Under the pieces are notes generated by a model, which was not told the origin of the DNA, searched no databases, and was given only the letters and a program-made list of their open reading frames with translations. Positions 21,947 to 59,661 of a DNA stretch of 64,000 nt are shown piece by piece. The position numbers and the translations under genes were made by a program. Numbering within the stretch: the first letter of the stretch is position 1; every line of letters begins with the position of its first letter. Source of the DNA: an uncultured Acidobacteriota bacterium. GTDB taxonomy: Bacteria > Acidobacteriota > Thermoanaerobaculia > UBA5066 > Gp7-AA6. The stretch covers positions 14,573 to 78,572 of the forward strand of contig CAWEMP010000013.1 in the NCBI GenBank assembly GCA_963810205.1, written 5' to 3'.

Positions 21947-23032
21947 CTAGTGCAGGAACTTCTTCCGGTTGCGGATGTAGTCCGTGAACAGGAACTCCGC
22001 CAGGTTGTACGGCGACGCGTAGTACGCCCGTCCGCGATTGATCTTGGTCAGCTTGTCGACGAACTCGACGAGGTACGTGTCCGTGGCGATCATGAAGGTC
22101 GTGATCGTGATGCCGTCGCGGCGGCAGGCGTCGGCCTCCTCGAGCGTGCGGTTGACGATCTTGAGGTCGAGGCCGAACGGGTTCTTGTAGAGCCGGCCGC
22201 GCTCCCAGATCGCCGAGGGCTTGCCGTCGGTGATCAGGAAGACCTGCTTGTTGGGGTTCTTGCGGTGGACGAGGAGCTTGCGCGCGAGCGCGAGCCCGGC
22301 CTTGGTGTTGGTGTGGAACGGCCCGACCTGCGTCTTCGAGATCTCCGAGATCGGCACGCGCTTCGCGTCGTCGCCGAACAGAAGCACGTCGATCGAATCC
22401 TTGGGGTACTTCGACTGGATGAGCTCGACCATCGCGAGGGCGACCTTCTTCGCCGGCGTGAAGCGGTCCTCGCCGTAGAGGATCATCGAGTGGGAGATGT
22501 CGATCGCGAGCACCGTGGCGCAGGAGGTCAGGTGCTCCTCCTCGTGGACCTCGAAGTCGTCGGCGGTCAGCGCGATGTCGTCGGCGTCGCGGCGCACGGC
22601 GTTGCCGATCGAGCGGATGCCGTCGATCGCGCTGGGGTTGTCGCCGAATTCGTACGCGCGCGTCTCGGGCAGCAGCTCGCCGCCCGACCCCGAGCGCGGG
22701 ACCGCATGGTAGCCGGAGCCCGCCTTGGTCAGGGACGTGAAGATCTCCTCGAGCGCGGAGCGGCGGATGCGCCGCTCGCCGGCCGCCGAAAGGGTGAGCT
22801 GCCCGCCGCGCTCCTCGACCATCTCGCTCTTCTGGAGCTCGTTGCGGAACTCCTCGAGGTCGATGCCCGGGTCGATCATGCCGCGCTCCTGGAGGTACTT
22901 CATCCACCGGAGCGCCTCCTCGACGTCGCCGCCCGACTGCAGCACGAGCTGGAGGAAGAGCTTGACGAGCTCCTGCTGGGTGAGGAGCTCCCGGAGCAGG
23001 TCGAGCGGAAAGTCCGTGTAACGGTAGCGCAC
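21947..23032 (-). CDS. vWA (von Willebrand factor A) domain protein, partner of the upstream AAA+ ATPase
   Basis: 361 aa; VLAIDISHSM MIDAS-like motif. Confidence 0.8.
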   Translation of the reverse strand: MRYRYTDFPLDLLRELLTQQELVKLFLQLVLQSGGDVEEALRWMKYLQERGMIDPGIDLEEFRNELQKSEMVEERGGQLTLSAAGERRIRRSALEEIFTSLTKAGSGYHAVPRSGSGGELLPETRAYEFGDNPSAIDGIRSIGNAVRRDADDIALTADDFEVHEEEHLTSCATVLAIDISHSMILYGEDRFTPAKKVALAMVELIQSKYPKDSIDVLLFGDDAKRVPISEISKTQVGPFHTNTKAGLALARKLLVHRKNPNKQVFLITDGKPSAIWERGRLYKNPFGLDLKIVNRTLEEADACRRDGITITTFMIATDTYLVEFVDKLTKINRGRAYYASPYNLAEFLFTDYIRNRKKFLH

Positions 23033-23037
23033 GGCGT

Positions 23038-23804
23038 CTATCCGCGCCCCAGAGCCGCGCGCCAGGAGGCGGCGGACTGCGCCAGGAGCGATCGGTCGCT
23101 CGTCGTGAAGACCGTGTAGCCGAGCGCGGCCAGCGCGGGAATCTGGTCGACCGTGCGAAGCATGATGCCGGCCGCCTTGCCATGCTCGCGCGCGACGGCG
23201 CCGACGCGCTCGACGGCGGCGCGATAGCGCGGCTCGTCGTAACGGCCGGGGACGCCGAGGGCCTGCGAGAGGTCGTTGGGCCCGACGAAGAGGACGTCGC
23301 AGTCCTTCTCGGCCGCGATCTCGGAGAGCGCGTTGACGGCGCCGGCGGTCTCGATCTGGATGACCACGGCCGTGGAGGCGTTCGCCTCGAGCACCCAGTG
23401 GTCGAAGGGAAGCGTCCCGTAGCGGTTGGCGCGCACTCCCGCGAGGCCGCGTTTCCCGACCGGCGCGTACTTGACGCTCTCGACGGCGGCGCGGACCGCC
23501 GCGATGCCGTCGGCCCTCGGGAAGAGCGTCCCGGCCGCGCCCGAGTCGAGCGCGCGGCCCGCGTCGGCCGAGGCCTGGCAGTTCGGCACCCGGACGATCG
23601 CCGGGATGCGGGCGCCGTCGGCCGCGCGGACCATGGCCTCGACGGACTCCGGGCCGAAGTTGCCGTGCTCGGTGTCGAGAACGAGAAAGTCGAACCTCGG
23701 CAGATCGCCAGCAACTCCGCGAGCCCGGCGGTCGGCCACGTCAGGAAGCAGCCGAGAACGGGCTCCCGCGCGAGGAGGCGCGAGCGCAGCGCGCCCTCCG
23801 CCAT
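23038..23804 (-). CDS. HpcH/HpaI-family aldolase (class II aldolase/citrate-lyase beta-like); N-terminal frameshift
   Basis: 233-aa ORF with the DFLVLDTEHG motif. The N-terminus MAEGALRSRLLAREPVLGCFLTWP is found in another frame, with its ATG 2 nt after the AAA+ gene stop. Confidence 0.65.
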
Positions 23805-23806
23805 CC

Positions 23807-25393
23807 TCAGTTCACCCGGTTCCGGACCAGGTTGAACTTCAGCATCTCGGTGTAGGAGATGCGGGAGTCGAGATCCTCGCGGGCGATTTTCAGGTGCTGG
23901 GTCAGGCCCTCGAGGACGAGCTCCATGCCGATCGCGAGCTCCTCCGTCGAAGCCGGAGAGAAATGCTCCTCGACGGCCTTCTTCAGGCTCGGGACCGACT
24001 GGAGCGCGGCGAGGTGCTCGGAAAACGGCGCGTCGTCGGAGAGGGTGATCCGGTTGCCCGCGGCGAACCAGGCGACGATCGGCTCGTAGAGCGGGTTCAC
24101 CTTCTCGGGCGGCGGCGGGGCCGGGCGGCGCCGCTGCGGCCCGCCGGTCTCCTCGTCCTCCTCCGCCTCCAGGCGGCGCCGCTCCGAGGGCCGGCCGGAG
24201 TCGGGCGGCGGGAACTTGGCGTCGAAGAGCTTCTTGACGGCGGTGCCGATGAGCTTCTTCGCGATGACCTCCGCGCCCTGCTGCTCGCCCTCGTACACCA
24301 TCTCGACTTTTCCGGTGATCGCGGGCAGCGTCGCCGGCAGGTCGCAGAGCCGCGGCGACACCCGCGTCTCGCCGTTGACGAGGCCGCGCCGCTCGAGGTT
24401 CGACGCGAGGATTTCGATCGCGGAGATCGGCATGCGCGCCGAGACGCCCGAGGACTGGTCGACGAACTCGGAGGCGCGCGCGGCGAAGGCGATCTCCTCG
24501 ACGAGCTCGCGGAAGAGGTCGGGGATCTCGATCTTCGGCCCGCCGTCGCGCTCGACCCAGGCCTCCTGCGCCGTGATTTTCGCCGCGGTCTTCACGTCCT
24601 CGGGATAGTGCGTGAAGATCTGCGAGGAGATGCGGTCCTTCAGCGGCGTGATGATGTTGCCGCGGTTGGTGTAGTCCTCCGGGTTCGCCGAGAAGACGAG
24701 CAGGATGTCGAGGGGGATCCGCACCGGGAAGCCTCGGATCTGCAGGTCCCGCTCCTCGAGGATGTTCAAGAGCCCGACCTGGATGCGGGGCTGGAGGTCC
24801 GGCAGCTCGTTGATCGCGAAGATGCCGCGGTTCGTGCGCGGGACGATGCCGAAGTGGATGACCTCCTCGTCCGAGTAGGCGCGCCGCTCGGTGGCGGCCT
24901 TGATCGGGTCGATGTCGCCGATGAGGTCCGCGATCGTCACGTCGGGCGTCGCGAGCTTCTCGCGGTAACGCTCCTCGCGGCCGATCCAGACGATCGGCGT
25001 CGCGTCGCCCTTCTCGGCGGTGATGCGCCTGCCGTACTTGGTGATGGGCGCGAAGGGATCCTCGTTGAGCTCGCTTCCGGCGATCGCCGGGATCTCGGCG
25101 TCGAGCAGGTGGACGAGCAGGCGGAGCAGCCGCGTCTTGGCCTGGCCGCGCAGGCCCAGCAGCAGCATGTCGTGCTTGGAGAGGATCGCGTTGTGGAGCG
25201 CGGGCAGGACCGTGCGCTCGTACCCGTGGATGCCGGCGAAGGGATTCTCGCCCTGGGTCAGCGCGCGGCAGAGGTTGCCGCGGAGCTCTTCCTTGATGCC
25301 TCGCGAAACGTAGCCGGACGACTTCAGATCTCCGAGGGTCTGGGGCTTCTGGGGTCAGGCCTTGATTCTGTACTCCCCGGCCGCCCTGGTCAT
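23807..25393 (-). CDS. AAA+ ATPase of Mg-chelatase ChlI/sigma-54-interaction-like type (Walker A GLRGQAKT); in-frame TGA at codon 13
   Basis: 453-aa ORF. The N-terminal domain upstream (..FAGIHGYERTVLPALHNAILSKHD) is in frame back to ATG 25393, but interrupted by a TGA inside an inverted repeat. Confidence 0.65.
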
Positions 25394-25472
25394 CCGCTCT
25401 TTTGCTCATCTGATTAATCCAACTTTCTGCCAACTTGCGGCTCATGAGTACAGAATCAAGGCCTGACCCCAG
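25344..25472. repeat. Perfect 27-bp inverted repeat (arms about 25344-25370 and 25446-25472) around a 75-nt relatively AT-rich loop holding the RBS and ATG of the AAA+ gene
   Basis: Seen in sequence: cttctggggtcaggccttgattctgtactc ... gagtacagaatcaaggcctgaccccagc. Confidence 0.8.
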
Positions 25473-25506
25473 CTTTCTCCGGCTACCTGCCGGCGTTGCG
25501 GGACTC

Positions 25507-25992
25507 TCAACCCGGTTTGAAGGAGGGGGCCTGGTCGGAGGGCGCAAAGAGCGTCGGGGCGGGCTTGTGGGCGAGGGCGGCCGCCCGGCCGGCGAGCGCC
25601 TGCATGCGCGCCCGGTCGAAACCGACGACCGTCTCGGCGATCTTGCCGTCGGCGCCGACCCGGAAGAGCGTCGGAACGTTCGCCACGCCGAGCGCATCCG
25701 ACGCCGGCCAGGGCTCGCGGTCGTAGAGGGTCTCGAGCCGCGTCTTCAGCCGGGCGCCGAAGGCCTTCGTCTTGGCGGCGTCGTCCTGCGTGATCGCGAC
25801 GACCGAGAATGTCCCGCCCTCGGCGATCTGCCGGATCCTCTCGAGGAACGGCCAGGTCAGCTCGCAGGTCGGGCAGGTCGTCTTGAAGACCGCGTAGAGA
25901 GTCTCGCCGCCGCGCCTGGGATCGGCCGCCGCACCGGACTGGTCGCGCAAAGTGATCTTCGGGAACGGAGCTCCCGGGTCGAGGGCGGCCAC
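25507..25992 (-). CDS. Thioredoxin-fold protein (TlpA/AhpC-TSA-like, CPTC active site)
   Basis: 161 aa with FKTTCPTCELTWPF. Confidence 0.7.
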   Translation of the reverse strand: MAALDPGAPFPKITLRDQSGAAADPRRGGETLYAVFKTTCPTCELTWPFLERIRQIAEGGTFSVVAITQDDAAKTKAFGARLKTRLETLYDREPWPASDALGVANVPTLFRVGADGKIAETVVGFDRARMQALAGRAAALAHKPAPTLFAPSDQAPSFKPG

Positions 25993-26063
25993 GACTCGGG
26001 ATTATAGACTTCGACCCGAGCGCGCCGGCGCTACGTCGAGGTCGGCGGGGAGGACACGCGTCG

Positions 26064-27407
26064 ATGAGTCGGAAGCAGCGCGGCCGGATCTCGCGGCGCG
26101 GGTTCCTGAAGGCGGCCGGGACGGCGATCGCCGCGGGGGCGGTGCCCGCGCTTTCGTGCTCGCCGTCGGAGAAGACCTCGTCGGCGGCCGGCAAGACCCT
26201 CCGCATCCTGCAGTGGAGCCACTTCGTGCCCGGCTACGACGCCTGGTTCGACGGCGTCTACACGAAGGAGTGGGGCGCGAAGCACGGCACTCGGGTCATC
26301 GTCGATCACATGGCCGCGACGGAGATCAACGCGCGCGGCGCCTCCGAGGCCGCGGCGAAGAAGGGGCACGATCTGTTCCTCTTCATCTCGCCCCCGGCCG
26401 CCTACGAGAAGCAGGTCATCGACCACCGGGAGATCGTCGACGAGGTCGAGCGGCGGCACGGCAAGATGATTCCGCTGGCGCAGAAGTCGACGCTCAATCC
26501 GAAGACCGGCAAGTACTTCGCCTTCTCCGATTCCTTCGTGCCGGACCCCGGGAACTACCGCATCGACCTGTGGAGCCAGGTCGGCTATCCCGCGGGACCG
26601 AGCACCTGGGAGGATCTGCGCTCGGGCGGGCGGCAGATCCGAGAGAAGTTCGGCAACCCGGTCGGCCTCGGCCTTTCGCAGGAGATGGACTCGAACATGG
26701 CCCTGCGCGGCGTGCTGTGGTCCTTCGGCGGGGCCGTGCAGGACGAAGAGGGCCGCCCGATTCTCCGGTCGAACGAGACGGTCGAGGCCGTGAAGTTCGT
26801 TCGCGCGCTCTACCAGGAGGCAATGACACCGGAGGTCTTCACCTGGGACCCGGCATCGAACAACCGGATGATGCTCGCGGGACGCGCGTCCTTCGTGTGC
26901 AACGCCATCTCGGTCACGCGGACCGCGGAAAAGGACAATCCGGAGCTCGCCCGGAAGATCGGCCTCGTGCCGGCCCTGCAGGGCCCCGTCCGCCGCATCG
27001 CCGCCGAGCACGTCATGAACTGTTACGTGATCTGGAAGTTCGCCGACAACATCGACGGCGCGAAACAGTTCCTGGTCGACCTCGTCGACCACTTCGCGGA
27101 GGTGTTTTCGAAGAGCGAGTTCTACAACTTCCCGTGCTACCCCACGACCGTTCCGAACATGGCGGAGGTCCTCGCGAAAGACCCCGTGGCCGATCCGCCC
27201 GGCAAGTACTCCGCGCTCTCGGGCGTCCTCGACTGGGCCACGAACGTGGGGTTTCCGGGGTATGCGACGGCGGCGATCGACGAGGTTTTCAACACCTTCG
27301 TCATCCCCACCATGTTCGCCCGAGTCGCGCGCGGCGAGGTCCGGCCGGAGGCCGCGGTCGACGCGGCGCAGCAGGACGTGGAGCGGATTTTCAAGAAGTG
27401 GGCGTAG
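26064..27407 (+). CDS. ABC transporter periplasmic substrate-binding protein (family 1, sugar-type) with Tat signal
   Basis: SRRGFLKAAGTAIAAGA twin-arginine motif. 447 aa. Confidence 0.85.
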   Translation: MSRKQRGRISRRGFLKAAGTAIAAGAVPALSCSPSEKTSSAAGKTLRILQWSHFVPGYDAWFDGVYTKEWGAKHGTRVIVDHMAATEINARGASEAAAKKGHDLFLFISPPAAYEKQVIDHREIVDEVERRHGKMIPLAQKSTLNPKTGKYFAFSDSFVPDPGNYRIDLWSQVGYPAGPSTWEDLRSGGRQIREKFGNPVGLGLSQEMDSNMALRGVLWSFGGAVQDEEGRPILRSNETVEAVKFVRALYQEAMTPEVFTWDPASNNRMMLAGRASFVCNAISVTRTAEKDNPELARKIGLVPALQGPVRRIAAEHVMNCYVIWKFADNIDGAKQFLVDLVDHFAEVFSKSEFYNFPCYPTTVPNMAEVLAKDPVADPPGKYSALSGVLDWATNVGFPGYATAAIDEVFNTFVIPTMFARVARGEVRPEAAVDAAQQDVERIFKKWA

Positions 27408-44729: not shown

Positions 44730-45160
44730 ATGGGTAATGAAGTCAAGATCAAGCTGACGGACGCTCAGAAATCCAAGATCAAGGAAGCCACGGGCAAGGA
44801 CCTCCCGGAGATCCGCGTCGAGACGTTCGGCTCGAGCCCGGCCTCGATGTCGGCGAGCTCCCCGCTGAAGGCCACCCGCGCCATGCGCGCCGCCAAGTCG
44901 CTGCGTGCCGCGAAGTCGTTGCGCGCCGCGAAGTCGCTGCGTGCCGCGAAGTCGCTGCGTGCCGCGCAAGTCGCTGCGTGCCGCGCAAGTCCCTGCGCGC
45001 CGCGAAGTCCCTGCGCGCCGCGAAGTCGCTGCGTGCCGCGAAGTCCCTGCGCGCCGCGAAGTCCCTGCGTGCCGCGAAATCGCTGCGTGCCGCGAAGTCC
45101 CTGCGCGCGGCCAAGTCGCTGCGTGCCGCCAAGTCCCTGCGCGCCGCGAAGTCCCTCTAG
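44730..45160 (+). CDS. Small protein: 55-aa Lys-rich N-terminal region followed by about 16 tandem KSLRAA hexapeptide repeats; two indels in the repeat array
   Basis: GAAGGAGGA RBS. MGNEVKIKLTDAQKSKIKEATGKDLPEIRVETF... The 44978..45160 ORF reads (KSLRAA)n to the TAG. Confidence 0.55.
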
Positions 45161-52008: not shown

Positions 52009-52428
52009 ATGAAGAAGGGCGATCTGACGGTGAAGGCGATCGGTCTCGCGGTGGCCGGTGTTCTCGCGGGCTCGCAGCTGCTCTCGGCTCTGCCGAAGAA
52101 CGAGTCGAAGGCCGGCGGCAAGAACGGCAACGCGAGCCAGGACGCCAAGGACAAGACGGCCGCTTCCTCCGACAAGCACGTCTGCAAGGGCATGAACTCG
52201 TGCAAGGGGAAGGGCGGTTGTAAGAGCGGCGACGCCGGCTGCGCGGGCAAGAACTCCTGCAAGGGCAAGGGCGGCTGCGCTTCGGCCGACATGAAGCACT
52301 CCTGCAAGGGCATGAACGCGTGCAAGGGCCAGGGCGGCTGCAAGAGCGGCGAGAACGGCTGCGCCGGCAAGAACTCCTGCAAGGGCAAGGGCGGCTGCGC
52401 GGTTCCGGTCGCGAAGAAGGCGGCCTAG
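52009..52428 (+). CDS. Cys-rich RiPP precursor candidate: Sec signal peptide plus two near-identical 6-Cys modules (12 Cys), bufferin/BUF_6/12Cys-like
   Basis: AAAGGAGACAGGG RBS. MKKGDLTVKAIGLAVAGVLAGSQLLSALP. Modules HVCKGMNSCKGKGGCKSGDAGCAGKNSCKGKGGCA and HSCKGMNACKGQGGCKSGENGCAGKNSCKGKGGCA. Confidence 0.7.
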   Translation: MKKGDLTVKAIGLAVAGVLAGSQLLSALPKNESKAGGKNGNASQDAKDKTAASSDKHVCKGMNSCKGKGGCKSGDAGCAGKNSCKGKGGCASADMKHSCKGMNACKGQGGCKSGENGCAGKNSCKGKGGCAVPVAKKAA

Positions 52429-56520: not shown

Positions 56521-56562
56521 GACGGCCGGGCGCGGGAAGTCAGGAGCCCGGAGGCAACGATC

Positions 56563-57655
56563 GGGGTCAGCCCTGAAGGTCTGACGATTGGGGTCTGACC
56601 TGAAAGTCTGAAGGTTCGTGCCCGAGCGCGGACGCGACCCGCTCGACGCGTCTTGCGAGAGCCGGATCGCGAACCATCGCCCTCTCCAGCCGGCGCAGGC
56701 CGTGGGCGAACGCGGATTCGTCTCGCCCGAAGCAGCCGGCCAGCGCAGCAGCCGCGATCCCATGGTCCCGCCGCCCGACATAAGCGGTGATCAGACGTGC
56801 CTGTGACTCCGCTCGGCCCTGCGACGGCCCCTTCAGCCAACCGAGCGAGAAGCCCTGCAGCGTGCATGCTGCAGTCGCGAATGTCGACGGCGTCCAGCGG
56901 CTCTCCTTTGGCAAGGCCAACCGCGCCTCGTGCAACGAGCGCCGCGCGAACTCCTCCCCACCCTTGACGACGCGCCCGAGCGGTTCGACGTCGTCGTAGG
57001 ATTCAGGCTCGGCGGATCCCATCCAGTGCCGATACGCCGCGCGCGCTCGTGGCCGAGTCGACGCGAGCCGCTGCAGCACGAAATCGACATCGAGCCAGCT
57101 CGGTCCTCCTCCCTCGCGGTACCACCGATCGCTTGACCAGGGGAAGACCTCGGGTCGGTCCACGATCCCGGCCTTGACCGGATTGAGGTGAATGTACCGG
57201 ACGAGCGTCGCCAGGTAGCGCTCATGCTCCACGAGGAAGGCCTTGTACCGGCCCTGAAAGAGATGGCCGACGCGATCGTGCCGGACGTTGAACTTCTGGC
57301 TGTAGTAGAAATGCAGCGCCAGCATGACCTTCGAGAGGAGGACGGGACCTCGCTCGATCGCCAGATGGACGTGGTTCGGCATGAGGCAATAGGCGAGCAC
57401 GCCGAACCCATATCGATCGCGGCATTCGGCGAGTCGCGAGAGGTACAGTCGCCGATCTGCGTCGTCGCGGAAGAGGTCACGCCGCTCGTTTCCGCGGGCG
57501 ATGACGTGATAAACGCCCCCGGCGATCTCGACTCGCGGCGCGCGCGACATCGCTTCCGATTTCGCTCCTCTATCCCTACTATTGTCGCAAGCGGGCCCTG
57601 AAGTGTCATACCTTCAGGGCTGACCCCAAGTGTCAGACTTTCAGGGCTGACCCCC
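56563..57655. mobile_element. REP-associated tyrosine transposase (RAYT) unit flanked by inverted doublets of REP-like hairpin sequences
   Basis: Left GGGGTCAGCCCTGAAGGTCTGAC and GGGGTCTGACCTGAAAGTCTGAAGG. Right GTCATACCTTCAGGGCTGACCCC and GTCAGACTTTCAGGGCTGACCCCC (reverse complements, 1 mismatch). Confidence 0.7.
56567..57550 (-). CDS. tnpA: IS200/IS605-like Y1 (HuH) transposase, REP-associated (RAYT/TnpA_REP)
   Basis: VYHVIARGNERRDLF...LMPNHVHLAIE...HLFQGRYKA (HuH and catalytic Y). The ORF tail reads into the REP. Confidence 0.8.
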   Translation of the reverse strand: MSRAPRVEIAGGVYHVIARGNERRDLFRDDADRRLYLSRLAECRDRYGFGVLAYCLMPNHVHLAIERGPVLLSKVMLALHFYYSQKFNVRHDRVGHLFQGRYKAFLVEHERYLATLVRYIHLNPVKAGIVDRPEVFPWSSDRWYREGGGPSWLDVDFVLQRLASTRPRARAAYRHWMGSAEPESYDDVEPLGRVVKGGEEFARRSLHEARLALPKESRWTPSTFATAACTLQGFSLGWLKGPSQGRAESQARLITAYVGRRDHGIAAAALAGCFGRDESAFAHGLRRLERAMVRDPALARRVERVASALGHEPSDFQVRPQSSDLQG

Positions 57656-57680
57656 ATCGGGGAAAGGATAGCCTCTGCCC

Positions 57681-59661
57681 GTGAGAGACGCCCTGACGCG
57701 GGAGTGGCTCGAAGCGGACGGGCTCGGCGGCTTCGCCTCGGGGACGGTCGCGGGGATCCGGACCCGCCGGTATCACGCGCTCCTCCTGACCGCGACGACG
57801 CCGCCGACGGGACGCGTCGTGCTCGTGAACGGGTTCGACGCCTGGGTCACGACCTCCGCAGGCCGCTACGCCATCACGTCGCAGTCCTACGGGCCGGATG
57901 TGACCTACCCGGACGGTGGCTCCCGCGCCGACGCCTTCACGCTCGAGCCCTGGCCGCGCTGGACGTTCACGCTCCCGGACGGGACGCGCGTCGCACAGGA
58001 GATCTTCGTGCCGAAGGGCGCCTCGGCCGCGGCCGTTGCCTGGAAGCTCGTCTCCGGGACGGGCGCCGTGGCCCTCGAGGTCCGGCCGTTTCTTTCCGGG
58101 CGCGATTACCACTCCCTCCATCACGAGAACCCGTCCTTTCACTTCGAGGCCGCGGCGGCCGGCGACGGGAGCCTGCGCTTCCAGACGTACGCGGACCTTC
58201 CCGCGATCGCGATGCGTGCCAACGGCACATGGGCGCCCGGGCCCGAGTGGTACCGCAACTTCGTCTATGCCGAGGAGCGCGCCCGCGGTCTCGACTTCGC
58301 GGAAGACCTCGCGTCGCCGGGAACGCTCCGCTTCGACCTTTCCCGCGGCGAGGGGATCTGGCTCATGGCGGCGGAGGGGCACGAGGCGGCCCTCGGCACG
58401 GACAGCCCCGAGGCCGCCCTCGAGGCACTCCGCACCGCCGAGCGCGCGCGCCGCGCCGCCTTCGCCACGGGGCTCGAGCGCTCCGCCGACGCCTATCTCG
58501 TCCGCCGCGGCCAGGGGAAGACCGTCGTCGCCGGCTACCCATGGTTCACCGATTGGGGCCGCGACACTTTCATCGCCCTGCGCGGACTGTGTCTGGCCAC
58601 CGGCCGCCTCGACGAGGCGGGCGAGATCCTCGTCCAGTGGGCGGGCGCCGTCTCGGAGGGCATGCTGCCGAATCTCTTTCCGGACGGAAAGGTTCAGCCG
58701 GAGTTCAACTCCGTCGACGCCTCCCTCTGGTATCTCGTCGTCATGGCCGAGTACTTCCAGGCCCGCGCCGCCGCGGGCCGCCGCGTCGCGGGGGCCGAAC
58801 GGCAGAAGCTGCAGACCGCCTTCGGCGAGATCCTCTACGGGCTACGCGACGGGAACGCGCTACGGGATCCGCGCCGACTCGGATGGACTGCTCGCCGCGG
58901 GCGAGCCGGGCGTGCAGTTGACGTGGATGGACGCGAAAGTCGGCGACTGGGTCGTCACGCCGCGCATCGGAAAGCCCGTCGAGATCCAGGCCCTCTGGAT
59001 CAACGCTCTCAAGATCGCCGACGCCTTCACCGACGCTTTCCGCGGTCTCCTCGCGAAGGCCACCGAGTCCTTCGAGAAGCGCTTCTGGAACGAGGCCGAA
59101 GGCTGCCTCCACGACGTCGTCGACGTCGACCACCGTCCCGGTACCGCCGACCCGACCCTGCGGCCGAACCAGGTTTTCGCCGTCGGCGGACTGCCCGTTC
59201 CGCTCGTGACGGGAGAGCGCGCGCGGCGGATCGTCGACGCCGTGGAGTCTCGGCTCGCGACGCCATTGGGCCTTCGCACCCTCCCGCCGGGACACCCGGA
59301 CTACCACCCCCGCTACGTCGGCGGCCCACTCGAGCGCGACGGCGCCTACCACCAGGGCACCGTCTGGCCGTACCTGCAGGGCGCATTCGTCGACGCCTGG
59401 GTCCGCGTGCGCGGGGGAGGCGCGGACGTCGTCCGTCAGGCCCGCGAGCGGTTCCTCGCTCCGCTCCTCGCCCACCTCGACGAGGCGGGCGTCGGCCACG
59501 TCTCCGAGATCGCGGACGCCGACCCGCCCCACACGCCCCGCGGCTGCCCCTTCCAGGCCTGGTCGCTCGGCGAGCTCCTGCGTCTCGACCGGGTGATCCT
59601 GGCCCTCCCGCTCGGCGCCCGACACGCCGGGCGCGGGGCGGCATCCAAGGTCCGGGCATGA
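57681..59661 (+). CDS. Glycogen-debranching-enzyme-like (amylo-alpha-1,6-glucosidase family) protein; 1 frameshift near 58860
   Basis: [30 protein letters not shown]-domain. The C-terminal catalytic (alpha/alpha)6 region is in the 57916..59661 frame. Confidence 0.7.

Follow-up and report, generated by a model that had tools for sequence, protein, structure and literature searches.

The 64,000-nt stretch of DNA analysed here (the window; part of contig CAWEMP010000013.1 of an uncultured soil Acidobacteriota bacterium) carries on its minus strand an operon of AAA+, HpcH/HpaI aldolase and vWA genes, preceded by a redoxin gene, and the question raised by this locus is what a 27-bp perfect inverted repeat is doing between the redoxin and AAA+ genes, at the very place where translation of AAA+ should begin. 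The initial annotation had offered two answers, an inserted element resembling repetitive extragenic palindromic (REP) sequences or miniature inverted-repeat transposable elements (MITEs), and a translational riboregulator. The comparisons presented below lead us, with good confidence, to consider the palindrome as a copy of a dispersed family of palindromic repeats in Thermoanaerobaculia-type Acidobacteriota, and as a REPIN-like element or REP doublet. We see in it a mobile element of an ordinary kind that has no dedicated regulatory function at this locus.

The perfect inverted repeat was confirmed at 25349-25375 and 25446-25472, and stretches to 36 nt at 89% complementarity. Read on the minus strand, the distal (mRNA-5') arm (25446-25472, CTGGGGTCAGGCCTTGATTCTGTACTC, with the family core beginning GGGG at 25470) is followed by a loop (25376-25445) and by the proximal (mRNA-3') arm (25349-25375, GAGTACAGAATCAAGGCCTGACCCCAG). 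The distal arm begins 35 nt past the redoxin stop codon (TGA, 25509-25507), in the intergenic region to which it had been assigned. The loop is indeed AT-richer than its surroundings (GC content of 0.40-0.53 versus about 0.68), although its length is 70 nt and not the 75 nt first given, and it has no match in the other copies of the element described below, in the window or in the loci compared. The order of features after the redoxin TGA is thus 26 nt, a Shine-Dalgarno-like sequence (GGAGAAAG, 25473-25480), the distal arm, the loop and the proximal arm, with the conserved body of AAA+ (AAG CCC CAG ACC CTC GGA GAT CTG AAG) directly after the palindrome. The loop contains ATG codons at 25445 (within ATGAGCCGCAAG), 25409 and 25393, and the AAA+ frame runs through the proximal arm as GCC TGA CCC CAG; the twelve codons counted from the ATG at 25393 end at this TGA (25357-25355), as had been reported. 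Within the window, the 27-mer is confined to its two arms even when up to 3 mismatches are allowed, and none of 100 shuffles matched. The predicted RNA fold of the region has an energy of -87.5 kcal/mol (z = -7.4 compared with shuffles), and that of the element alone -65 kcal/mol. A scan of 24500-26500 against Rfam at E <= 1 returned no family at the palindrome and only two chance-level matches elsewhere, and a scan for sigma-70 promoters and terminators found none.

Homologues of the AAA+ protein number in the thousands, the closest ones coming from metagenome-assembled genomes (MAGs) of Thermoanaerobaculia and from soil metagenomes. The N-termini of the orthologues are short (M/V-S-P-K-P-Q-T-L-G-D-L-K or variants), and they align with the KPQTLGDLK of the window, which starts right behind the proximal arm. 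Two orthologous loci, L001 (94% amino acid identity) and L002 (90%), were compared with the window. Both have the same order of SBP, redoxin, AAA+ and HpcH aldolase genes, with the vWA gene also found in L001, and in both the spacer between redoxin and AAA+ is 40 bp long and lacks the element. Homology to these loci in blastn stops at 25472 and restarts at 25348, which are the outer edges of the arms. In the alignment, L001 reads GAAAGC-GTCCCGTGAGCCCC-AAGCCCCAG and the window GAAAGC-(123 bp)-AAGCCCCAG; in their codon context, L001 reads GGTAGCCGGAGAAAGC GTCCC GTG AGC CCC AAG CCC CAG, while the window reads GGTAGCCGGAGAAAGC (123 bp) AAG CCC CAG. The comparison shows an insertion into the redoxin-AAA+ spacer, in which 123 bp took the place of 14 bp, the native GTG start among them.

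This changes the interpretation of what the hairpin encloses. It had been described as holding the ribosome-binding site, the ATG and the first twelve codons of AAA+. The ATG at 25393 and twelve in-frame codons are present, but by the alignment they are element sequence and not the native N-terminus, and the ATG is not the gene's own start. The ribosome-binding site lies outside the hairpin, as the Shine-Dalgarno-like sequence occupies invariant alignment columns in the window, L001 and L002 and is found directly 5' of the distal arm; it stands 6 nt ahead of the start codon in the orthologues and touches the base of the hairpin in the window. The possibility that the ATG at 25393 is a native start after all, giving an N-terminus similar to that of L002 (MTRAAG followed by KPQTL), was considered and set aside, the likeness not being significant (p = 0.29).

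One part of the loop does resemble native sequence. Its first 12 nt (ATGAGCCGCAAG, 25445-25434) match GTGAGCCCCAAG of L001 at 10 of 11 positions (p = 0.0025 versus shuffled loops), and an AAG recurs directly after the proximal arm. Together with the fact that loops differ in every copy of the family, this could be taken to mean that two single REPs were inserted separately on either side of the native start, and that the loop is partly host DNA. We regard such a history as improbable, given that the test was made post hoc, that nothing similar to its remaining 58 nt exists in the orthologues or flanks (p = 0.22-0.76), and that the modal length of 63 nt among the copies implies an element acting as a unit. 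Neither was the loop significantly similar to a copy of its flanks (p = 0.22-0.99). The likeness between ATGAGCCGCAAG and GTGAGCCCCAAG is therefore treated here as a curiosity.

Further copies of the arm are found outside the window. The family arm can be written as GGGGTCAGGCCTTGA[T/A]TCTGTACTC (the window arm being GGGGTCAGGCCTTGATTCTGTACTC). No additional copy of the 27-mer is present in the 64 kb, but an exact 20-mer of the arm matched six loci (8 kb each) in the GTDB genome collection, all of them in MFD09730.bin.2.99, a related MAG of an uncultured Acidobacteriota bacterium, where the arms stand as inverted pairs. When one degenerate position was allowed, the 20-mer also matched 20 soil or sediment metagenome contigs from JGI, 12 of which carry both arms. 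The occurrence of the same family elsewhere excludes a palindrome produced by misassembly, an artefact that had been named as a possible source of the repeat, although a small indel error at its edge may still be present. Including that of the window, 18 non-redundant copies were collected. All consist of an inverted pair of arms with GGGG facing outward, and all fold as a single hairpin. The modal length of the element is 63 nt (25 + 13 + 25), with others ranging from 60 to 102 nt and the window copy being the longest at 120 nt; the loops, about 10 to 70 nt in length, are unrelated between copies. No direct repeat indicative of a target-site duplication was found in the flanks of the 18 copies. 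The family was not found described in Rfam or in the REP and RAYT (REP-associated tyrosine transposase) literature searched.

The arms are more conserved than what lies within or around them. In L011 and L022, which represent the same locus in diverged strains, 49 of 50 arm positions are identical, compared with 57% identity in the loop and 76-79% in the flanks, and in L012 both arms carry the identical substitution. The loop is thus free to drift, whereas the arms are kept the same, either through selection for pairing or through homogenisation. The copies are found in the spaces between genes or run over the ends of genes, mostly 3' ends. Thirteen neighbouring genes run into a copy (L003-L028), and 11 of these terminate at the TGA that occupies arm positions 13-15, read as GGG GTC AGG CCT TGA, so that their products end in ...GVRP* (binomial p = 2e-4, with one frame in three expected at random); for six other neighbours the stop codon is 3-18 nt away from the element. 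In L004 (6297-6363), a 63-nt copy occupies the entire intergenic space: one arm seems, by eye, to contain the stop codon of the upstream gene, and the downstream gene, which is intact, has its ATG (MRIGILGTRGIPARYGGFE...) 1 nt past the other arm, with no space for a free Shine-Dalgarno sequence. Related repeats were also seen, namely a distinct palindrome in L008 (7574-7637, GGGGTCAGGTCTGAAATCTTCGG...CCGAAGAATCGAGACCTGACCCC) and an orphan repeat in L035 (about 1466-1492, GGGGTCAGTCCTGATTCCTGAC), so that several sub-families coexist.

A connection between the palindrome and a transposase is provided by the window itself. A RAYT gene is located at 56567-57550 on the minus strand (NF047646, REP-associated tyrosine transposase, 84.7 bits for a cut-off of 80; also PF01797). 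Two tandem REPs (GGGGTCAGCCCTGAAGGTCTGAC and GGGGTCTGACCTGAAAGTCTGA, 56563-56611, plus strand), 19-20 of whose 25 positions are identical to the arm, stand beside it, and two further tandem REPs, inverted relative to these, are found on its other side (57601-57654, minus strand). The REPs flanking this gene begin GGGGTCAG. The resemblance between the arm and these repeats, pointed out in the initial annotation, is borne out by the motif GGGGTCAGSCC, which in the window occurs only in the palindrome and in the RAYT-flanking repeats (5 matches versus 0.15 expected). Homologous RAYTs at other loci are flanked by a graded series of such repeats: GGGGTCAGCCCTGCAAGTCTGA for the RAYT of L030 (79% identical to that of the window), GGGGTCAGCCCTGAATCTCTGACTCTT for that of L036 (62%) and GGGGTCAATCGTG[T/C]ATTCCTGTA for those of L031-L035 (52-57%). 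The arm is identical to the L036 repeat at 21 of 25 positions, and the portion after GGGGTCA is itself significantly similar (p = 0.0005 versus shuffles). The RAYT gene of the window and its REPs (56560-57660) are also 100% identical to positions 1390-2500 of L029, while the flanks differ by 2-4%, which suggests a recent movement, exchange or sweep of the RAYT cassette. In L029, a 10-bp tandem duplication (TCCCCGATGG) is found just beyond the outer REP.

These results allow the two halves of the REP/MITE-like proposal to be separated. The REP form is retained, on account of the absence of the element from the orthologues, its multiple copies, the lack of target duplication and its homology to RAYT-flanking REPs. 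A MITE that depends on a DDE transposase, such as a miniature element of the Tn3 type, would share with the family its small size, its multiple copies and its 25-27 bp terminal inverted repeats starting with GGGG. We nevertheless judge this origin very improbable, as none of the 18 copies shows a target-site duplication (and hence none the 5-bp duplication of Tn3-like elements), the interior is not conserved, and the arms are homologous to repeats found beside Y1/RAYT genes and not beside DDE genes. The Correia elements of Neisseria are instructive in this respect. They are small non-autonomous MITEs that end in inverted repeats of about 26 bp, have a conserved interior and make a TA duplication, and they can land beside genes, altering their expression or adding coding sequence; the palindrome family has neither the TA duplication nor the conserved interior.

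The closest parallel is with REP doublets or REPINs (Bertels and Rainey 2011, PMC3116915), which correspond to the head-head dimers of Di Nocera et al. (2013, PMC3733652). According to the latter article, pairs of REPs placed head to head at a distance of 20-100 bp are common and can adopt a single stem-loop fold. REP doublets are, like the palindrome, inverted repeats with the tag outward that form one long hairpin. Further similarities are the absence of a target duplication and arms kept while the surrounding DNA diverges; dispersed, mostly extragenic copies often situated at or over gene ends, and repeats related to those beside a single-copy Y1/HUH RAYT in the same genome, would probably be shared as well. 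The differences concern the tag, which is GGGG in the palindrome and GTAG in the classical families, the single arm, which makes a poor hairpin, and the spacer, which REPIN populations usually share, whereas the spacers of the palindrome family are unrelated and its observed copy number is low. The link to a RAYT also differs in degree, since the arm is homologous but not identical to the RAYT-flanking repeats (19-21 of 25 positions).

The GGGG tag has a counterpart in the TIRtron/TIRYT repeats. According to Di Nocera et al. (PMC3733652), inverted repeats with a common GGGGWSAS motif, which often form dimers and also clusters, may lie on both sides of Y1 transposases, and a distinct Acidobacteria group of such transposases is defined. 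GGGGTCAG fits this consensus, in a comparison that rests on an 8-nt motif. In their account, repeats of the GGGGWSAS type flank Y1 transposases longer than the classical RAYTs, and the enzymes considered here have 317-327 amino acids; TIRtron-type repeats flank the RAYTs of the window, L030, L031-L035 and L036. The examples that they name (PMC3733652) are Terriglobus saanensis, Koribacter versatilis, Acidobacterium capsulatum and Granulicella mallensis, with none from the Thermoanaerobaculia. The present repeats add a REP-type family for the Thermoanaerobaculia, tied to the graded series of RAYT-flanking repeats described above.

Each copy consists of two REP-like units of about 25 nt, inverted with their heads outward around a variable spacer. 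By analogy with the established mechanism of Y1/HUH enzymes of the IS200/IS605 type and of RAYTs, such a doublet would be moved as single-stranded hairpin DNA by a RAYT-type transposase acting in trans, without target duplication. Several observations weigh against this interpretation of the palindrome. A single arm is a weak hairpin, in which only GTCAG...CTG(T)AC can pair (5 bp and a bulge, as read from the sequence), unlike the RAYT-flanking REPs (GTCAGCC..GGTCTGAC), which do make a hairpin. The spacers differ in every copy, unlike those of classical REPIN populations, which replicate as a unit, and few copies are seen, with six exact-seed loci in one MAG and one in the 64 kb of the window. 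Furthermore, no RAYT bounded by the exact arm was found, including among the six loci of RAYT homologues, and none lies within 8 kb of the six MAG copies or on the metagenome contigs.

The same body of evidence bears on the suggested translational riboregulator or attenuator, a hairpin that would have arisen to hide or uncover the place where translation of the AAA+ operon begins. A very stable hairpin between two co-transcribed genes, whose arms have changed less than the neighbouring coding DNA when orthologous copies are compared, is what such a regulator could look like. However, L001 and L002 have no hairpin at this locus, and elsewhere the same arms are found with unrelated loops and in unrelated places, for the most part where genes end (3'). 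The ATG inside the hairpin does not belong to AAA+ as its native start, and neither an Rfam match at E <= 1 nor a promoter-like or terminator-like site was detected. A regulatory origin is for these reasons highly unlikely, and the suggestion is not supported. A different kind of function is somewhat less remote, though still rather unlikely: the family may not be only selfish, but a tolerated or co-opted "punctuation" of very short intergenic spaces. In favour of this are the stops supplied by the arm in a fixed frame (11 of 13), the conservation of the arms (98%) compared with the flanks (76-79%), and the way a copy reaches, with its opposite end, up to the next start codon in L004, and also in the window if the short-read start call discussed below is right; in the window, a split ribosome-binding site would then be formed across the stem.

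If the palindrome is a mobile element, what does it do to the genes around it? In the transcript, the conserved Shine-Dalgarno sequence would be separated from the coding body by a hairpin of about -65 kcal/mol. Such a structure may shield the redoxin message upstream at its 3' end, and it would probably block ribosome loading on the downstream genes, because the conserved Shine-Dalgarno sequence is now on the far side of the stem. The element in addition supplies the in-frame TGA, leaving the AAA+ frame as assembled (23807-25354, minus strand; Mg-chelatase/MoxR-like, PF07728; 515 codons from TGA to stop; 94% identical to P0001) without a start for 62 codons. The first in-frame ATG, GTG or TTG after the TGA is found at 25168 (Met-64), and the public annotation of the source contig (378,698 bp) contains exactly the 453-amino acid product starting from it. 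This apparently truncated AAA+ is explained by a mobile palindrome and not by a regulator. The expected outcome, on the sequence as it stands, is that AAA+ is silenced or strongly reduced, probably together with aldolase and vWA; the alternative is that one base was dropped in the assembly. Recoding of the UGA, as selenocysteine or by read-through, was rejected, the 12 codons before the TGA having no counterpart in the N-termini of the orthologues, while a selenocysteine insertion sequence (SECIS) was not specifically searched for.

The first of these two outcomes supposes that the missing AAA+ start is a true mutation, as is a second lesion in the same operon. Compared with L001 and L002, the aldolase gene (23038-23804, minus strand) has an extra AT at 23705-23704, which splits it into two parts (from the ATG at 23804 to about 23705, and 23703-23041) and leaves it frameshifted as assembled. 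The operon would accordingly be recently silenced and decaying, a reading that we hold as a tentative possibility. It is in line with two disabling lesions within 1.7 kb of one operon, the intact state of the neighbouring redoxin, SBP and vWA genes, the lack of other frameshifting indel differences compared with the sister strain, and the truncated product in the public annotation. On the other hand, the AAA+ body and the vWA gene (96.7% amino acid identity to L001) are otherwise undamaged, so that the decay would have to be very recent, a gene call on a short-read contig favours an intact start, and a frame shift in another gene of the window (the glycogen-debranching gene, see below) indicates that such lesions are not limited to the operon. 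If the insertion does silence the AAA+/aldolase/vWA operon, the locus would represent a natural knockout in an uncultured lineage.

The second outcome, for which we would give nearly even chances, is that the element is real but the gene is intact, the true sequence being ...CCTGACCCC ATG AAG CCC with one T lost to a Nanopore assembly error. The lost start codon does depend on a sequence that is probably of Nanopore-only origin, and related records carry frameshifts, which has to be counted against a broken gene. Long-read assemblies of Microflora Danica were produced from Nanopore data only, using Flye and one round of Medaka polishing (PMC12313526). The sister records ERZ250394xx-395xx ("contig_N") fit the Microflora Danica naming and accession pattern, from which we infer that they and the window come from this long-read project and that the window is probably a Nanopore-only assembly. 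Also unfavourable to a broken gene is the short-read contig ERR12037368 from Logan (1002 bp), which has an identical redoxin and on which the next gene is called at +157 past the redoxin stop. This position corresponds to 25350 of the window, where the window reads AGA, and the SBP start at position 208 of the contig corresponds to 26064. Provided that the upstream stretch is colinear, the sole solution would be one extra T, giving CCCC ATG AAG CCC and the product MKPQTLGDLK, as only the insertion of a T at this position would open the AAA+ frame through to the end of the contig. The Microflora Danica Illumina sets ERR12036778 and ERR12035935 carry the RAYT.

An intact gene would place the palindrome exactly between the Shine-Dalgarno sequence and the start codon. 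MKPQTLGDLK would be made, and the base of the hairpin would bring the Shine-Dalgarno sequence and the AUG together across the stem, forming a split ribosome-binding site. A split ribosome-binding site is known from gene 38 of phage T4. An MKP... N-terminus exists in the same 90% cluster (P0373, MKPRTFGELK), the L004 copy ends 1 nt ahead of the ATG of an intact gene, sister assemblies contain frameshifts, and the remaining AAA+ frame is undamaged over 515 codons, all of which agree with this interpretation. Less favourable is that exact look-ups of the predicted 27- and 514-amino acid products found none, although the miss of the 27-amino acid product weighs little, considering that a 69-amino acid partial SBP product was also unmatched and short partial products may be uncollected. 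The site is moreover not a homopolymer, and 3.8 kb of coding sequence compared between the window and the 98% identical strain (L029) contain no indel that shifts the frame, so that two errors within 2.3 kb would be unusual. Exact look-ups of products beginning with MKPQ.., MSRKPQ.., MTRAAGKPQ.. and MSPKPQ.. likewise found none, and a search for an intact AAA+ of the same species with the N-terminal 169 amino acids gave nothing above 88% identity, the cluster members all being from other species. Real inactivation and a one-base assembly deletion are in the end about equally probable, and neither alters the identity of the element. Gene-disrupting calls beside such hairpins in Nanopore-only MAGs nonetheless call for checking at the level of the reads.

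The other genes of the locus are the redoxin (thioredoxin-like) gene upstream of AAA+ (25507-25992, minus strand), which is intact and codes for 161 amino acids, and the vWA gene, which is part of the same operon as AAA+ and aldolase (21947-23032, minus strand) and is likewise intact. In one sister record, P0369 (ERZ25039463 contig_95699), redoxin and AAA+ are fused into a protein of 693 amino acids by a frameshift near the 3' end of redoxin, and the native spacer is read through as ...GESTLVSPKPQTL. Next to the RAYT cassette, the glycogen-debranching (GDE) gene, which runs from 57681, shifts frame at about 58.84 kb (58827-58880), near TACGGGCTAC; L029 (ERZ25039602:contig_15512, 98% identical) has no gap at this site, and the frame change is common to the two assemblies. 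Self-blast of the window also revealed tandem direct repeats in two places: at 44884-45156 the copies are 54 bp apart (90% identity over 221 bp), and at 52146-52400 they are approximately 114 bp apart (85% over 141 bp).

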